Shown here in pieces: positions 8,217 through 15,118 of a DNA stretch of 64,000 nucleotides. The position numbers were made by a program, and so were the translations under genes. The notes beneath the pieces were generated by a model. That model saw only the letters and a program-made list of their open reading frames with translations, did no database searches and was not told the DNA's origin. Each line of letters opens with the position of its first letter. Within the stretch, counting starts at the first letter, position 1. Location of the stretch: positions 1,472,001 through 1,536,000 of the forward strand of contig OZ241744.1 of assembly GCA_965200965.1 (NCBI GenBank), written 5' to 3'. Source of the DNA: an uncultured Candidatus Binatia bacterium. GTDB taxonomy: Bacteria > Desulfobacterota > Binatia > Bin18.

Positions 8217-9518
8217 ATGGACATGCTATGGCGATTGCCTATGGCAATTGTGGAAGACTCAATCGCGTTCTCTTTCGCGTTGGTCATTGGCTTGGTTTTG
8301 ATTCTGGCCTTGTTGGCCCGATTTGTGGGACGCTTCCAGCGTTTCGGGGGGCTAGAGCGTTCCGGCCCTACCTTACTGGCCACCTTGGGCGTCCTTGGCA
8401 CTTTTGTCGGGGTTGCGATCGGGCTCCTTGATTTTGACGTGAGGAACATTGATGCAAGCGTCCCTCAGTTATTGGCTGGGCTCAAGATCGCATTCCTGAG
8501 CAGTATTATCGGCTTGGCTGCATCAATCATTCTAAAAGCCGTGCAAGCGACCACGCCGGGGGCCGATACGGAAGAAGCAGAGGTCACGCCGGAGGCTATC
8601 CATGCCACCCTGATCGCTATTCAAAAAGGAATCGACACAGCGGCAGCCCAAGAACGCGATTCGCTTGAACATTTACGCAAGTCAATTTCTGCCGATAGCG
8701 ACAGCAGCCTTCTTACCCAGGTCCAAAAATTGAGAACGGATTTCCAAGACGGCCAGACAGAGTTGATAACAGAGTTTCGTCAATTCGCGGAGACTATGGC
8801 CAAGAATAATTCACAGGCTCTCATTGAAGCTCTTGAACAGGTCATTCGCGACTTCAACACACAACTGAATGAACAGTTCGGCGACAATTTCAAGCAGCTT
8901 AACGAAGCGGTGGGGAAGCTCCTGGCTTGGCAAGACAATTATCGGGAGCACGTCGAGGCTTTGGAAAGTCGGCTTGAGAAAGCGGTTCAAGCAACCGAGG
9001 CTTCAGAACAAGCACTCGGCGAGATTGCAGGCCACACGAGGCAGATTCCTGAGACCCTGCAAAGCCTGCGGGACATTCTGAAGGGGCTGGACGAACATCT
9101 GACAACCGTTGCGGAACTGAAGGACAAGGCTATAGCGGCTTTCCCCGTGATTGACGACAAACTCAAAGAACTGACAGACCGGCTCGGAGAATCGGTTGAG
9201 CGGTCTGACAATGCCCTCCAGCGTCAGCAGGAGGCTCACAACGCGCTTCACCGGGGCTTCGACACGCTCCTGGAGCACTCTCAGCAGTCCCACCAGCAAT
9301 TCGAGGACGCCCTCAAGGATGCTCTGTCAAGGGCGGCTTCCGGGATCGAAGCTCAGCTTGGCAGACTGAACCAGGAAATGGAGCGGACGCTGCACGAGAG
9401 TATCCAGAGCATGGGACAAAAGCTGGCGTCGCTGTCTGAAAAATTCGTCGAAGACTACGGTCCCCTGACCGAAAAGCTCCATAAGGTGGTTCAGATGGCG
9501 CAGAGACCAGGCGCATGA
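8217..9518 (+). CDS. zorA: Zorya ZorA (MotA/TolQ/ExbB-like channel with long helical tail)
   Basis: TM segments LGVLGTFVGVAIGL...AGLKIAFLSSIIG, followed by ALIEALEQVIRDFNTQLNEQFGDNFKQLNEAVGKLLAWQDNYR; in operon with MotB-like and HNH genes. Confidence 0.85.
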   Translation: MDMLWRLPMAIVEDSIAFSFALVIGLVLILALLARFVGRFQRFGGLERSGPTLLATLGVLGTFVGVAIGLLDFDVRNIDASVPQLLAGLKIAFLSSIIGLAASIILKAVQATTPGADTEEAEVTPEAIHATLIAIQKGIDTAAAQERDSLEHLRKSISADSDSSLLTQVQKLRTDFQDGQTELITEFRQFAETMAKNNSQALIEALEQVIRDFNTQLNEQFGDNFKQLNEAVGKLLAWQDNYREHVEALESRLEKAVQATEASEQALGEIAGHTRQIPETLQSLRDILKGLDEHLTTVAELKDKAIAAFPVIDDKLKELTDRLGESVERSDNALQRQQEAHNALHRGFDTLLEHSQQSHQQFEDALKDALSRAASGIEAQLGRLNQEMERTLHESIQSMGQKLASLSEKFVEDYGPLTEKLHKVVQMAQRPGA

Positions 9519-10225
9519 TGACGGTGGAAAAGCTGTTTGGTCGCCGTGCATCGTCTGACGACGAGCACTGGATGTCTGTTGCCGACCTGATGGCCGGCCT
9601 GATGGTCATTTTTCTGTTTATTGCTATCACCTATATCCGGCCTATTGTCGAAATCCAGTCCAAGATTCGGAACATTGTCGTCGCCTGGAAAGACTCGGAG
9701 GTGGAAATCTACGAGGCGTTGAATGAGGAGTTCAAGAACGAGCTGCCGAGATGGTACGCAGAACTGGACCGGAATACCTTGTCTATACGTTTTAAGGCTC
9801 CTGAGATTTTGTTTGACTCGGCAACCGCGGCACTGAAACCCGATTTCAAATTCATCCTGGCCGAATTTTTCCCTCGCTATCTCAACGTACTGTCTCAGTT
9901 CAAGGGCGCGATTGCGGAAGTTCGCCTTGAGGGCCACACATCGTCCGAGTGGGAGGGGGCCACAACCAGGGACGAAGCGTATTTCAGGAATATGGAACTT
10001 TCGCAAGCCAGGACCAGAACGGTTTTGGAATACTGTCTCGGGCTGCCGTTGGTTGAGCCGTACAAGGACTGGGCGCGCGGGCTGATTACCGCCAACGGCC
10101 TTTCTTCCAGCCGTCTGATTTTCCGGGATTCCACAGAGGATAAGCCCAGCTCGCGACGCGTTGAATTCAGGGTCCGCACCAATACCAAGGAACAGATTGT
10201 CAGAGTTCTGGAGACAATAGAATGA
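9515..10225 (+). CDS. zorB: Zorya ZorB (MotB TM plus OmpA-like domain)
   Basis: WMSVADLMAGLMVIFLFI, EVRLEGHTSSEW, NMELSQARTR, SRRVEFRV; ATGA overlap with zorA. Confidence 0.88.
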   Translation: MMTVEKLFGRRASSDDEHWMSVADLMAGLMVIFLFIAITYIRPIVEIQSKIRNIVVAWKDSEVEIYEALNEEFKNELPRWYAELDRNTLSIRFKAPEILFDSATAALKPDFKFILAEFFPRYLNVLSQFKGAIAEVRLEGHTSSEWEGATTRDEAYFRNMELSQARTRTVLEYCLGLPLVEPYKDWARGLITANGLSSSRLIFRDSTEDKPSSRRVEFRVRTNTKEQIVRVLETIE

Positions 10226-11121
10226 TAGACTTTCCAGAACTTCAAGCGTTGGTGAACCGCATGGGCGCGAGTCTTTCGTCTTGGCGGCTCCCACCCTATG
10301 AAACAACGCGGCAAAGAAAAGAAAGGGAGGAAAGGGAGAAACTGAGGCGAGAGCTTCGGCGCGGCATAGAGGTAAAGAATCTTGACGAAGTTAAACCGTA
10401 CGACGATCTGCTTACACATAAGGGCGAACAGATCGTCATCTACATCAAAGATACCAGGCAGGATAAATATACACTTTTGGGCGATCCAAAAAACGCCAGG
10501 AGGTTTCATGTCGCCGAATGTGAAACCATAAGGGATATGCGCACAGGAGGGCGCTTTAATCGGTATGTCATGACGGACAGACAGGACGGAAAATTTCTTG
10601 TGGAAGCCAGGGCTTCAAATGGGGCGGTAGTGCCATTTGAAGCCCCTCTATACGTCTGCAAGAACTGCCTTGGACAATTGAACTGGAAAGGATATGCGTC
10701 TTCGAGAAGCGACAAATTATGGAAAGAATTCTCGCTTCAGGACTTTTTTGCGGAATTTACGACCTTCTTTTCTGTAAGACCCCTGCATACGGCCCTGACA
10801 GCACTCCCGGCAGGTTATGCCAAAAATTGGCCCCGCCTGTCAACCAAGCTCAGGCATCAACGGGGTTGGCGTTGCGATGAGTGTGTCGTGAACCTTTCCG
10901 CCCATCGCCGTCTGCTTCACTGTCACCACAAGAACGGCGTTACCCGGGATAATAGACCGGAGAATATCGCCGTTCTCTGTCTCCTGTGCCACTCGAAACA
11001 GCCGTATCACGGACATGTTTCAACCGGTGCGGCAGAGCGTCAGATCATTGAATCGCTACGCAATGAACAGCGCTCTCAACCCCAAAACCGACAACCAACT
11101 AGGGGATATGAAAAGTGGTGA
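10222..11121 (+). CDS. zorE: Zorya type II effector ZorE (HNH endonuclease)
   Basis: FHVAEC...GRFNRYV, VCKNCL, WRCDEC, HCHHKNGVTRDNRPENIAVLCLLCH; ATGA overlap with zorB. Confidence 0.8.
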   Translation: MIDFPELQALVNRMGASLSSWRLPPYETTRQRKEREEREKLRRELRRGIEVKNLDEVKPYDDLLTHKGEQIVIYIKDTRQDKYTLLGDPKNARRFHVAECETIRDMRTGGRFNRYVMTDRQDGKFLVEARASNGAVVPFEAPLYVCKNCLGQLNWKGYASSRSDKLWKEFSLQDFFAEFTTFFSVRPLHTALTALPAGYAKNWPRLSTKLRHQRGWRCDECVVNLSAHRRLLHCHHKNGVTRDNRPENIAVLCLLCHSKQPYHGHVSTGAAERQIIESLRNEQRSQPQNRQPTRGYEKW

Positions 11122-12112
11122 CATATTCGTTCTCAAAACCCTTGAGTTCCAGGCGGCGGTCCAGGGGCTGAAACCGCGCGGCCAGAGCCGGGGTTTCGTG
11201 GCTGAGGCGGTCTAGGGCAGCTTCGGTGGCGATGATCCCGCCGGGCGGGATGTGCTTGAGCAGCCGTGAAGCCAGATTGATGCTCGGGCCGATCAGGGTG
11301 ACCGAGCGACGCATGGCCACGCCGACCACGCCAATGATGATGTCGCCGAGGTTGAGACTGATGCGGGCCTGGAGGGCCATGTGCTCGGGCCGAGTGTCTG
11401 ACAGGGCTTTGCGGACGTCCAGGGCGGCCTGCACGGCTTCCGTCACCGATTCAAAATACAGCAGCGCACCGTCGCCCTCATAGTCTTTGACATCACCGCA
11501 GTTTTCCAGGGCGATTTCGGTCACAAGGGCCATAAAACCTTGGACTAAATCCAGGGCGCGTTCCGGAGGCTGGTTGACCAGCGTGGAGGTGGAGTTGGCA
11601 ATGTCAACAAAGACAACGGTGAGTTCCTTTCTGATTGGCGTGTTGCCCTGCGACAGATGGCTCCGCGCCAAACCGGGCAAAAACGTATGGGCATGGCTCG
11701 GCGTCTGGACCGCGGACGACGGCTCTGAAACGCCGTGAGGGGCGGGGGTCTGCTCCTGATTCAGGGCGACGGTCGGATACCCGGCCTCTCGCCAAGCGCT
11801 CAGGCCGCCGGCCAGAACCGCAACCGACTGAAAGCCTTCGGCTTGTAACCACAGCGCCGCCCGGGCGCTGCTCGCATCCCCGGGTCAGGTTCAATACAGC
11901 GCAATCAGGGCCTCCCGGGGCAAGCTGTGCGCCCGTTGGACGATCCCGGCTATGGGCAGCCAGCGCGCGTTCGGCAATTGGACGGGCAGGAACAGGCGGG
12001 CATCGGTGGTCCGCACGTCAATCGGAATAACCGCCTCGCCGCCGGCCATACGGGCGTGCAACGCCTGGGGGTTGATCCGCCGGACATCTTGGGCGCTGGT
12101 GTGTGTTGGCAT
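11099..12112 (-). CDS. rhodanese-domain / class III adenylate cyclase fusion, putative selenoprotein with two in-frame UGA (U74, U76)
   Basis: ORF 11891..12112 continues in frame through TGA-ACC-TGA into PGDASSARAALWLQAEGFQSVAVLAGGLSAWREAGYP (rhodanese C-half), then without further stop into ORF 11099..11680 (FVDIANST, KDYEGDG, TLIGPSINLASRL). Confidence 0.8.
11860..11884 (-). promoter_or_regulatory. candidate bacterial SECIS-like hairpin immediately 3' of the second UGA
   Basis: CCCGGG-GAUGCGAGCAGCG-CCCGGG: 6-bp GC stem with a possible inner UG/CA stem and CGAG loop; folded by eye only. Confidence 0.4.
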
Positions 12113-12171
12113 TGCGCATTCCTCCCTGTCAGCCCAGTCTGTTGTTTTGCCGGGGCGGTGACAAGCCCGGT

Positions 12172-13155
12172 TTACTGAGCAAATGCGTCAACCAGGGTCC
12201 GCAGTTCGTCCGGGGTGAGACGGCTGCTTGGCAGAGCGGCAACCACGGCCAGGCTCAGCCCGGCCTGGGTGAAAGCCCTAAGCTGGGTGTGACACTCCTC
12301 GGCCGTGCCAAAGATGTACAGGTCTTCGACCATCGTGTCGGGGATGGCGGCTTGGGCTTGGGCCCGGTCGCCGGCCTTCCAACAGGCATGAACTTGGTCC
12401 ACAATCTCGCCATAGCCAAAGCGCCGGAACCCCTGAATATAGGTGTTGGCCTGACAGTAGCCGGCCAGGATACGCCGCATCTGCTCAAGCGTCCGCTCCC
12501 GGTCGTCGGTCACCATGGTATGGATGTAACAGCCGACATCAATATCTTCCAAGCGCCGGCCGGCGCGCCTGGCCCCCGTGGCGATCTCGGCCAGCGAGTA
12601 CGGGACCTGCCGGGCCGGCAGCCAGGCGAGTTGCACGCCGTCAGCAATCTCGCCGGCCAGTTGCAGCATCTTGGGGTTCACCGCGGCCAGATAAATGGGC
12701 AGCTGGTGTGGGGCCGGGACGCTGAGTTGAAACCCGTGGGGCCGATAAAATCGTCCCTCATGGCTGACCCGCTCGCCGGCCAGCAGCCGGCGCAGCAGGG
12801 CGACGTACTCGCGCGTGCGGGTCAGCGGAAAGTCCCAGGCCAGGCCGTGGAAGGTGTTGATGTTGCGGGTGCTGACCCCCAGGCCGAGCCGGGCCCGGCC
12901 CGGCGCAATCAGGTTGAGGGTGGCGGCCTGCATCGCGGTCAGGGTCGGTGGGCGCAGGTAGAGGGAGACAATGCCGGTGCCAACATGAATGCGCTGGCTG
13001 CGGGCCAGCAGCGCACCGACCATTGTGCAGGTTTCGGTGCCCCAGGCTTCGCCGACCCACACACTGTCAAAATTGGCCGATTCGGCCCGCTGGACAATCT
13101 CTGTGCAGAGGTCCATCGCCATACCCAGCGGCGGCAGTCCAAGTCCGATGCGCAT
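12172..13155 (-). CDS. LLM class flavin/F420-dependent oxidoreductase
   Basis: VWVGEAWGTE, VGTGIVSLYLRPP, QLAGEIADGV; start ATG 13155 (MRIGLGL). Confidence 0.9.
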   Translation of the reverse strand: MRIGLGLPPLGMAMDLCTEIVQRAESANFDSVWVGEAWGTETCTMVGALLARSQRIHVGTGIVSLYLRPPTLTAMQAATLNLIAPGRARLGLGVSTRNINTFHGLAWDFPLTRTREYVALLRRLLAGERVSHEGRFYRPHGFQLSVPAPHQLPIYLAAVNPKMLQLAGEIADGVQLAWLPARQVPYSLAEIATGARRAGRRLEDIDVGCYIHTMVTDDRERTLEQMRRILAGYCQANTYIQGFRRFGYGEIVDQVHACWKAGDRAQAQAAIPDTMVEDLYIFGTAEECHTQLRAFTQAGLSLAVVAALPSSRLTPDELRTLVDAFAQ

Positions 13156-13168
13156 TGTGTCTGTCCTT

Positions 13169-15118
13169 TCAGCCGGCTTCGCCGTCCAACTCCTCGGCCA
13201 GCTCGGTCCAGCTTGCATAGTGTTGTTCCAGTTCCGCCTTGAGCGTTTCGTACTCGGCCGCGGTCTGCCTAGCCCGCTGAGACGTGCTGTATACGCTGCC
13301 GTCCGCCATCAGCGTCTCAATCTCTCGCCGCCGTTCCTCCAGTCCGGCGATACGCCGTTCGGCTTCTGCCAGGCGACGCTCCCGCTTGGAGCGTTCGGCC
13401 CGGTCGGCCTTCTGCCGCGCATACCGCGCCTTGCCCCGCTTTGCCTGCCGGATAGCGCTCACGAGCTCCTGTGCGCCGCTCTGGTCAGTCTTTGTCCCGT
13501 GCCCTTCCCCGTCCACATCGCGTTCTTTCCGCGCCAGAAACGCGGCAAACGACCCTGGGTACATGACCAGCCGACCGTCCTGCATTTCTATCACCTTGGT
13601 CACCAGACCGTCCAGAAAGTCACGGTCGTGTGAGACCACCACGAAGGTGCCGGTGAACTGCTGGAGAGCCTGTTTCAGCACGTCCTTGGTCCGCAGGTCC
13701 AGATGGTTGGTGGGTTCGTCCAGGATCAGAAAGTTTGAGGCCTGGAGCAGCATTTTGGCCAGGGCCAGCCGGCTTTTTTCGCCTCCACTCAGCACTGCCA
13801 CCCGTTTGTCAACCGCCTCGCCAGAAAACAAAAACGTCCCCAGCAAGGTTCGCAGTTGGGGGACGATGTCGAACGCCGCCCCGCTCGCAATCTCTTGATA
13901 CACCGTCCGCTCGGTGTTGAGCTTATCGGCCTGCTGCTGGGCGTAGAAATCGAGTGCCACCTGATGCCCCAGTGCGCGCTGTCCGTGGCTCGGCGCTTCT
14001 ACCCCGGCCAGCAGACGGCTCAGGGTGGATTTGCCGGCCCCGTTCGGGCCGAGGAGCGCAATCCGGTCGCCGCGCTCAATAGTCAGATCAAGCCTGGTGA
14101 AGACCTGGACCTGCTCGTAGTGTTTAGCCACCCCTTTCAGCTCCAGCACGACCCGGCCGCTGCGGGGGGCGCGTGGGAAGTGAAAGCGGACGCCGCTCGG
14201 AACGGTGTGAGGGGCCGGCAGACGCTCCATTTTCTCTAACTGTTTGATACGACTCTGGACCTGAGCGGCTTTGCGCGCGTTATAGCGGAAGGTATTGATA
14301 AAACGAGTGATGCGTTCGATCTCGGCCTGCTGTTCCTCGTAGGCTTTGCGGTCGGCTTCCAGCGTCTGGGCGAACTGGCGCTCAAAGGCCGAGTAATTGC
14401 CCACATAGTCGCTCAGGCCGTGGCGGTGGATGGTGGCGATGCGGGTGACGGTCCGGTCAAGAAACCTCCGGTCGTGGGAGACGATGATGACACTGCCGGC
14501 ATAGGCGCGCAGATAGCCTTCGAGCCACAGCACGGAGGCGAGGTCGAGATGGTTGGTCGGCTCGTCCAAAAGCAGAATATCCGGGCCTTGGAGCAGCAGC
14601 TTGGCCAGCGCGATACGCATCTGCCAGCCGCCGCTGAAGACTTCGGTTGCCCAGCCAAACTGTTCCTGGCGAAAACCCAGACCGTTTAGCACCTTGGCCA
14701 CCTCGGCATCGGCCCGAAAGCCGTCCAGTTCCTCAAAGCGGTGCTGGAGCTGGCCGTAGCGGGCCAACTCGTCGGTTGTCTGGGTGTGGTGCCCGGTCTC
14801 AAGGACAGCATGCAGGCGGGCCAACTCGCGCCGAATAGCGCTCAGCTCGGGCAGGCCGGACCGGGCTTCCTCAAACAGACTGTGCCCGACAATCGGCACG
14901 CCTTCCTGGGGCAGATAGCCGAGGCTGGTCTCCCGGCCGCGCCGGATGTGTCCGCGGTCCGGTTCGATCTGACCCATAATCAGTCGAAAGAGGGTTGTTT
15001 TGCCCGCGCCGTTGGGGCCGACAAGACCGACCCGGTCACCCCGGCGCAGTTGCCAGTTGAGCCGACGGAAGAGTGCCTGCCGGCCAAATGCCAGAGAGAG
15101 GTCGGTAATCTGCAGCAT
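13169..15118 (-). CDS. ABC-F family ATP-binding protein (YheS/Uup-like)
   Basis: Two GPNGAGK Walker A motifs, FSGGWQMR and LSGGEKSR signatures, LDEPTNHLD twice, C-terminal coiled coil, no TM. Confidence 0.93.
   Translation of the reverse strand: MLQITDLSLAFGRQALFRRLNWQLRRGDRVGLVGPNGAGKTTLFRLIMGQIEPDRGHIRRGRETSLGYLPQEGVPIVGHSLFEEARSGLPELSAIRRELARLHAVLETGHHTQTTDELARYGQLQHRFEELDGFRADAEVAKVLNGLGFRQEQFGWATEVFSGGWQMRIALAKLLLQGPDILLLDEPTNHLDLASVLWLEGYLRAYAGSVIIVSHDRRFLDRTVTRIATIHRHGLSDYVGNYSAFERQFAQTLEADRKAYEEQQAEIERITRFINTFRYNARKAAQVQSRIKQLEKMERLPAPHTVPSGVRFHFPRAPRSGRVVLELKGVAKHYEQVQVFTRLDLTIERGDRIALLGPNGAGKSTLSRLLAGVEAPSHGQRALGHQVALDFYAQQQADKLNTERTVYQEIASGAAFDIVPQLRTLLGTFLFSGEAVDKRVAVLSGGEKSRLALAKMLLQASNFLILDEPTNHLDLRTKDVLKQALQQFTGTFVVVSHDRDFLDGLVTKVIEMQDGRLVMYPGSFAAFLARKERDVDGEGHGTKTDQSGAQELVSAIRQAKRGKARYARQKADRAERSKRERRLAEAERRIAGLEERRREIETLMADGSVYSTSQRARQTAAEYETLKAELEQHYASWTELAEELDGEAG

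Follow-up and report, generated by a model that had tools for sequence, protein, structure and literature searches.

The minus strand of the window, i.e., the whole stretch of 64,000 nucleotides that was analysed (contig OZ241744.1 of an uncultured Candidatus Binatia bacterium), carries a gene in which a rhodanese-like domain is followed in frame by a class III nucleotide cyclase domain and which contains two in-frame TGA codons. Two UGA codons of one conserved gene are very likely decoded as selenocysteine (Sec). The features of the locus are as follows.

12121-12127, minus strand: Shine-Dalgarno-like AGGGAGG, 8 nt ahead of the ATG at 12112 (from the sequence)
11099-12112, minus strand: whole gene with two in-frame TGA codons, 337 codons plus TAG; full-length homologues known
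11786-12070, minus strand: residues 15-109, rhodanese-like domain below the cut-off of the related NF041203
11891-11893, minus strand: codon 74, a TGA with Sec predicted; 62 of the 90 TGA-bearing loci have Cys here
11885-11887, minus strand: codon 76, likewise a TGA with Sec predicted; all 90 TGA-bearing loci have this TGA, CxC relatives have Cys
11851-11871, minus strand: predicted bacterial SECIS, 8-bp stem and 5-nt loop CGGGC (11863-11859)
11684-11755, minus strand: variable low-confidence linker, residues 120-143
11102-11635, minus strand: class III nucleotide cyclase domain, approximately residues 160-337, with Asp170, Asp214, Asn279 and Arg283
11498-11500, minus strand: Cys205, conserved and family-specific, candidate redox relay (from conservation)
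11483-11485, minus strand: Asp210, base-selecting position (from OaPAC alignment and conservation)
11297-11299, minus strand: Thr272, second base-selecting position (from alignment); Ala in most relatives

The first-pass annotation had placed the two TGA codons, deduced a read-through product of 337 residues and pointed to a split open reading frame, all of which proved correct on the sequence: codon 74 occupies 11893-11891 and codon 76 occupies 11887-11885, the read-through frame ends at the TAG at 11101-11099, and in the list of open reading frames under translation table 11 the gene appears as pieces of 73 and 193 amino acids. Its description of a rhodanese fold followed by an in-frame cyclase is likewise supported, as both domains exceed their Pfam cut-offs (Rhodanese, PF00581, residues 15-109, 35.9 bits vs 22.2; Guanylate_cyc, PF00211, residues 162-325, 36.9 bits vs 21.9). 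The best NCBIfam match, NF041203, scores 61.9 bits with the whole protein and 65.7 bits with the domain alone, compared with a curated cut-off of 115. Purine-rich sites precede the start codon in most relatives, and a search for a promoter-like site for the gene found none. A full-length structural model based on a 19-row alignment reached a mean pLDDT of 80.9 with a disordered linker (residues 120-143), and a single-sequence model of the rhodanese domain alone reached a pLDDT of 38. The active-site loop reads Y-U-T-U here and Y-C-x-U in 62 of the 90 loci, and has a two-residue insertion relative to ordinary rhodaneses. The register of the rhodanese active site is ambiguous by two, because the loop Cys of 3TP9 corresponds to U74 and residue 65 of GlpE to U76.

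On the same strand, 59 bases separate the gene from an upstream LLM-class oxidoreductase gene (12172-13218, minus strand), with which it is possibly co-transcribed. Across 95 loci, the recurrent neighbours were an upstream LLM oxidoreductase (28 loci), a NAD-dependent dehydrogenase (26) and an ABC-F-like gene (19); they were taken as lineage synteny, and a conserved partner gene was rejected. Several other large neighbour clusters are antisense frames without Pfam match. On the plus strand, window positions 8217-11121 hold a type II Zorya-like trio with matches to ZorA2, ZorB2 and ZorE, all below NCBIfam cut-offs, and the ZorE-like reading frame overlaps the 3' end of the rhodanese-cyclase gene by 23 bases. 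Membership of the gene in this system was dismissed: it lies on the opposite strand, and no Zorya-like group occurs in the 32 largest neighbour clusters of the 95 loci.

Decoding of the two UGA codons

In a class sample of 301 genomes, 24 genomes had matches at 1e-30, at 28 places: 14 full-length UxU copies, four full-length CxU copies, one CxC copy, one UxU copy cut by a contig end and eight stand-alone cyclases. The argument of the first-pass annotation that a pair of chance nonsense mutations is improbable gains weight from this sample, in which 14 of the 18 full-length TGA-bearing copies have both TGAs and the other four have Cys at position 74. Among the best 80 of 219 related metagenome stretches, 58 were CxU, 13 were UxU and nine were unscored owing to contig ends or frameshifts. 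The genome copies, the metagenome stretches and one further genome locus (L039) together make up 90 TGA-bearing loci. Every one of them has TGA as codon 76, while codon 74 is TGA in 28, TGC in 60 and TGT in two, and not one has a further stop between the motif and the cyclase core. A profile search added 13 fused relatives without TGA, 12 of them CxC. Exchange between Cys and TGA at positions 74 and 76, which the first-pass annotation had suggested looking for, thus occurs at both codons, and full-length CxC relatives exist. In a tree of 84 distinct rows (of 91; at least 280 residues each, Sec written as Cys), Cys/Sec at position 74 changes eight times, and at least six of these changes are forced by well-supported branches. 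The family is for the most part CxU, and the predicted double Sec is a variant that recurs within it.

Selection acts on both sides of the codons, with dN/dS values for six same-genus genes of 0.27 (residues 10-73), 0.26 (residues 77-115), 0.24 (residues 116-143) and 0.10 (residues 144-337); residues 77-115, which lie beyond the UGAs, are conserved. None of the 120 best database proteins has a YCxC motif, and their query coverage is at most 76%, as expected if gene callers stop at UGA. The databases contain the Sec members in shortened form, with the N-terminal motif in 0 of these 120 matches.

The double TGA is not an assembly error. Seven distinct public runs span both codons (X4 may be the source of the assembly), and a check for TGC or TGT at codons 74 and 76 found neither codon so read in any of the seven, because every T>G difference falls elsewhere and no T>A occurs; in the fully listed read comparison, there is no difference at 11885-11893. 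The named public runs containing the stretch are sponge or unspecified metagenomes, with no RNA run among the matches listed. In runs X8 and X9 (two of the seven, from one study), a 2-base deletion at window position 12091 affects codons 7-8. It shifts the frame, and the upstream ATG, worked out from the sequence to be out of frame, would not rescue it. Because of this deletion, and because most genomes of one sister genus are without a match (matches in only 2 of 26), the gene is dispensable.

The genome encodes the machinery for Sec insertion, a point on which the first-pass annotation had made its proposal depend: selA, selB and selD all exceed curated cut-offs, and a tRNA-Sec with UCA anticodon adjoins selA. 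The selD gene carries its own TGA at the catalytic site, as do 5 of the 11 AhpC/TSA genes, one of which also has an extra TAG. Within the family, selA is present in 53 of 55 genomes, including 19 of 19 carriers of a TGA form. Five AhpC/TSA genes and a gene with a UGSC motif are probable selenoproteins (G000:C1:2709335, 1317287, 1301688, 3312768, 444373 and 666533). A second UGU candidate (C1:2576895-2576901) was dropped, as it lies opposite the end of a dehydrogenase-like gene, in antisense orientation. Elsewhere in the genome (G000:C1, approximately 2822800-2831400), regular repeats visible in all frames are probably a CRISPR array.

The bacterial SECIS (bSECIS) model describes a loop of 3-9 nt, a stem of 4-16 bp, G in the first two loop positions, a distance of 16-37 nt from the UGA and a folding energy of at most -7.5 kcal/mol (PMC13188914). 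The hairpin at 11871-11851 fits this model for both codons, its loop lying 27 nt past the first UGA and 21 nt past the second at -14.1 kcal/mol, with the loop G in second place. A generic SECIS rule, however, is passed by 742 of the 17,423 motif-filtered TGAs of the genome, and therefore only conservation counts as evidence. The inner five pairs are retained in all 67 distinct homologous 60-mers and all eight pairs in 43 of them, and in each of the 67 the loop G precedes a G or a U. The pair formed by the third positions of Ser82 and Ala86, both synonymous, is C-G in 40, U-A in 26 and U-G in one, i.e., compensatory. Codon use under the hairpin is fixed at Ala83 (GCC, 79/79) and Ala85 (GCG, 71/71), while elsewhere 0 of 105 comparable codon columns reach 0.9. 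In a shuffling test on 18 genome rows, the paired fraction was attained in none of 500 shuffles, a result that relatedness alone can give. A matching stem of 5-7 pairs occurs at the identical offset in 22 of 22 NF041203-type loci.

The CCCGGG hairpin that the first-pass annotation had noticed behind the second UGA is present in the sequence but not conserved, its six pairs being complete in just 2 of the 67 distinct 60-mers, and it was discarded as the SECIS; the conserved hairpin at 11871-11851 overlaps it. When the RNA of this genome is naked, the CCCGGG fold wins over the SECIS, whose pairing is then 0.16; this counts against our preferred explanation. With 6 nt past the first UGA masked, pairing of the SECIS core is 0.05, and with 9 nt masked, which is ribosome-like, it is at least 0.98.

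If the TGAs were true stops, the locus would be a pseudogene, or would yield a 73-residue peptide and a separately started cyclase. Stand-alone cyclase paralogues do exist (8 of the 28 places), gene callers split the gene and a frameshifted strain occurs. Yet across 90 loci the stops are TGA only and at Cys positions only, purifying selection acts on either side of them, residues 77-115 are conserved and the hairpin covaries. Separate translation from an internal start, which the first-pass annotation had named as an outcome that would count against read-through, also finds little to build on, since the only internal starts for a cyclase are TTG codons 145 and 148, neither with a Shine-Dalgarno sequence. 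True termination is accordingly very improbable. Decoding of codon 76 as Sec is close to certain on this evidence, and reading of both UGAs as Sec, served by SelB on one hairpin, appears highly probable. Stand-alone cyclases of the subfamily (L027, L028, P0135, P0136 and P0151) have a Cys pair of their own in a short N-terminal leader, and P0136 has an additional C-terminal domain without Pfam match.

Base-selecting residues of the cyclase domain

The modelled cyclase part superimposes on solved class III enzymes with Z 23 and an rmsd of 1.7 over 163 residues, and in these structural scores adenylate and guanylate cyclases are tied. The first-pass annotation had described an adenylate cyclase with intact D, GD, K/T and N..R residues. 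Asp170, Asp214, Asn279 and Arg283 are present as described, and across the 19 aligned sequences neither the two metal-binding Asp nor the Arg ever varies. The K/T pair, and with it the intact adenylate specificity, did not stand. In a gapless alignment with OaPAC, the Lys of K-F-I-G-D corresponds to Asp210, and Lys209 lies one register off. Every relative has Asp210 instead of this Lys, namely each of the 108 loci that contain the cyclase core (a 109th locus ends before it) and each of the 13 CxC-type relatives, whose position 209 is K in three, H in eight and R in two. Position 272, Thr here, is Ala in 86 of 91 scored loci and in the conspecific runs X3 and X11. Together, the invariant Asp210 in place of the Lys and the usual Ala at position 272 make the label 'adenylate' doubtful. 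In sequence terms, the invariant Asp210 is what defines this cyclase subfamily.

Base selection involves Lys/Asp in adenylate cyclases and Glu plus C/S/T/H/A/G in guanylate cyclases (PMC4215837). Measured against the guanylate cyclase pattern, the first site is acidic but Asp, not Glu, and the second-site residue fits. Asp is shorter than the Glu of guanylate cyclases, and our search turned up no characterised cyclase that has it at this position. In Ma1120, the K101E/D157T exchange cost 84% of the AC activity while GC activity rose by 236% (pH 7.5), and kcat/Km of K101E mutants for ATP was still equal to or above that for GTP (PMC4215837). Because these mutants retained ATP turnover, the D/A-D/T pattern is guanylate-like, not diagnostic. 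The active-site residues speak against cAMP as the product and possibly for cGMP. A product that is cGMP or mixed can be assigned tentatively from these residues; cAMP seems rather unlikely, and another nucleotide, or an inactive cyclase, is a little less likely again.

The selenoprotein switch proposed below could also drive an adenylate cyclase, one in which adenine is selected by means other than the canonical Lys. Of the solved cyclases, those that match best in sequence (OaPAC, Ma1120, CyaC and CyaB) make cAMP as adenylate cyclases, this copy has Thr272, the genome has a Crp-like gene and bacterial guanylate cyclases are rare (PMC4215837). We nevertheless consider this unlikely because every relative has Asp210 where the Lys would be, CxC relatives do not conserve Lys209, position 272 is Ala in 86 of 91 loci, and adenylate and guanylate cyclases are tied in structural score.

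Loss of the Lys could instead mean that the cyclase domain is a pseudo-enzyme, i.e., a module for nucleotide binding or dimerisation, with the rhodanese domain as the working end. In 24 of 91 scored loci Asn279 is replaced by His, Ser or Thr, and several CxC relatives have other residues there, which would agree with this reading. It is, however, quite improbable in view of the metal-binding Asp and Arg residues (invariant in 19 of 19) and the dN/dS of 0.10 in the cyclase part, and Ma1120 is active without the Asn (PMC4215837).

Cys205 is present in 91 of 91 fused loci, in 118 of 120 database proteins (two did not match the pattern) and in 12 of 13 CxC-type relatives, the exception being also without CxC and the first Asp. 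No counterpart occurs in 13 domains of nine unrelated cyclases. The other class III cyclase signal in the genome is one partial match (G000:C1:3162250-3162591), which covers profile positions 8-119 of 183 in an open frame of 155 amino acids and is probably truncated.

A proposed redox or sulfane-sulfur switch

It is tempting to propose that a double-Sec rhodanese domain switches the predicted cyclase according to redox or sulfane-sulfur state, an explanation to which we assign, as a whole and from sequence, a probability of roughly 0.55. Briefly, SelB on the single hairpin would serve both UGAs, as both lie within the 16-37 nt window. The pair at residues 74 and 76 would probably cycle from free selenols to a diselenide or perselenide and back, a state equivalent to that of Cys-x-Sec and Cys-x-Cys in relatives. 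On balance, the state of the pair would alter activity of the cyclase homodimer via helix 146-153 or by exchange with Cys205. Because there is no good internal start, the cyclase would be made only when selenium permits two read-throughs.

As hints of a switch we count the interchange of Cys and Sec, the family-specific Cys205 and six relatives with an AhpC/TSA domain. Several observations count against the proposal: Cys205 also persists where no rhodanese motif was scored (15 of 17 loci), only two cNMP-binding proteins are encoded in the genome, with no receptor identified among its genes, the catalytic Asn is replaced in part of the family, the gene is dispensable, and no family-wide redox or sulfur neighbour gene was found across the 95 loci.

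The six database relatives (P0010, P0012, P0013, P0015, P0038 and P0126) have a C-terminal AhpC/TSA domain and end at FYRGEW, and an AhpC/TSA gene of this genome reads FYRGNW-TGA-PYC at the equivalent point. The stop at FYRGEW in the AhpC-fused relatives is thus, by sequence comparison, probably a third Sec. DNA encoding the six proteins was not found in eight genomes of the genus. In one genome (G118, locus L014), a TAG is followed by a decayed remnant of the AhpC/TSA extension.

Spacing as in CxC is typical of metal sites, and the Sec/Cys pair, perhaps with Cys205, might instead form a soft-metal (Cu, Zn, Hg) site or act as a sulfur/selenium carrier. The two-residue insertion in the loop and the occurrence of the same module on DedA proteins and multiheme cytochromes would suit such a role. 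Repeated Cys/Sec exchange, on the other hand, is the pattern of thiol-redox sites (PMC13188914), and no family-wide metal-handling neighbour is evident (MgtE at 3 of 95 loci), which makes a metal or carrier site an improbable reading.

In its boldest form, the switch proposal would make this the first selenoprotein to produce a second messenger, as a bacterial guanylate cyclase switched by diselenide or perselenide, with one SECIS for two UGAs, a Cys205 relay, selenium-gated synthesis and, in some relatives, a third Sec in an AhpC/TSA domain that resets or oxidises the switch. Such a combination of parts is speculative and, taken together, unlikely.

Comparison with known systems

Among solved cyclases, the BLUF-cyclases OaPAC and bPAC (4YUS, 5M2A) resemble the protein in their short N-terminal sensor, linker helix, cyclase fold and arm length. 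They differ in having a light sensor, in selecting adenine by Lys/Thr and in being without Sec. The light sensor of these enzymes is a flavin. The bacterial guanylyl cyclase Cya2 (2W01) has acidic and small base-selecting residues (E/G; PMC4215837), compared with D/A or D/T here, and matches the modelled cyclase with Z 22.3 at 20% identity; its first residue is, however, Glu and not Asp, and the solved chain is without a rhodanese domain. CyaC of Sinorhizobium meliloti is a redox-controlled bacterial cyclase, but is membrane-bound, responds to respiratory quinones, makes cAMP and has an unrelated sensor (PMC10463352).

On the rhodanese side, NF041203 (rhodanese_LYCAU) is 'form 3' of the rhodanese-related (seleno)proteins with a CxU motif (PMC13188914, Table 1). 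It has the Y-C/U-x-U loop and the same hairpin at the same offset in common with the gene described here, whereas its 126-position model covers the rhodanese alone; here, the domain is fused to a cyclase, has two predicted Sec and scores below the cut-off. In a phylum sample of 201 genomes, UxU occurred in five NF041203-type loci, two stand-alone rhodaneses and three multiheme fusions, among ten places picked. The UxU rhodaneses fused to multiheme cytochrome c carry eight CxxCH motifs (L159:1239-2846, L160:688-2292 and L161), and DedA-rhodanese fusions (L163-L167) are CxU with the same hairpin. A UxU form of a rhodanese-related sulfurtransferase was reported in 2007 from symbionts of Olavius algarvensis (PMC1976440); it has the second Sec that is predicted here but no cyclase, a word that occurs 0 times in the main text of that paper. 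Novelty, which the first-pass annotation had attributed to the UxU rhodanese-cyclase as a whole, therefore extends to the fusion, for which we found no description, and not to the UxU rhodanese.

The 2026 catalogue of 119 prokaryotic selenoprotein families contains no cyclase fusion, 'cyclase' and 'UxU' occurring 0 times in its main text (PMC13188914), and a term search of a selenoprotein preprint found neither 'rhodanese' nor 'cyclase' (10.1101/2022.07.06.499078). Our literature search for a rhodanese-cyclase or Sec-cyclase fusion found none, although supplementary tables of selenoproteome papers could list one. The architecture of a cyclase-fused selenoprotein is apparently undescribed. A family with an assayable output also allows asking whether one SECIS serves two close UGAs, and its natural CxC, CxU and UxU versions of one proposed switch would let the benefit of Sec over Cys be examined directly. 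With no nucleotide cyclase among the 119 catalogued families, the proposed switch would therefore add second-messenger signalling to the roles of Sec.
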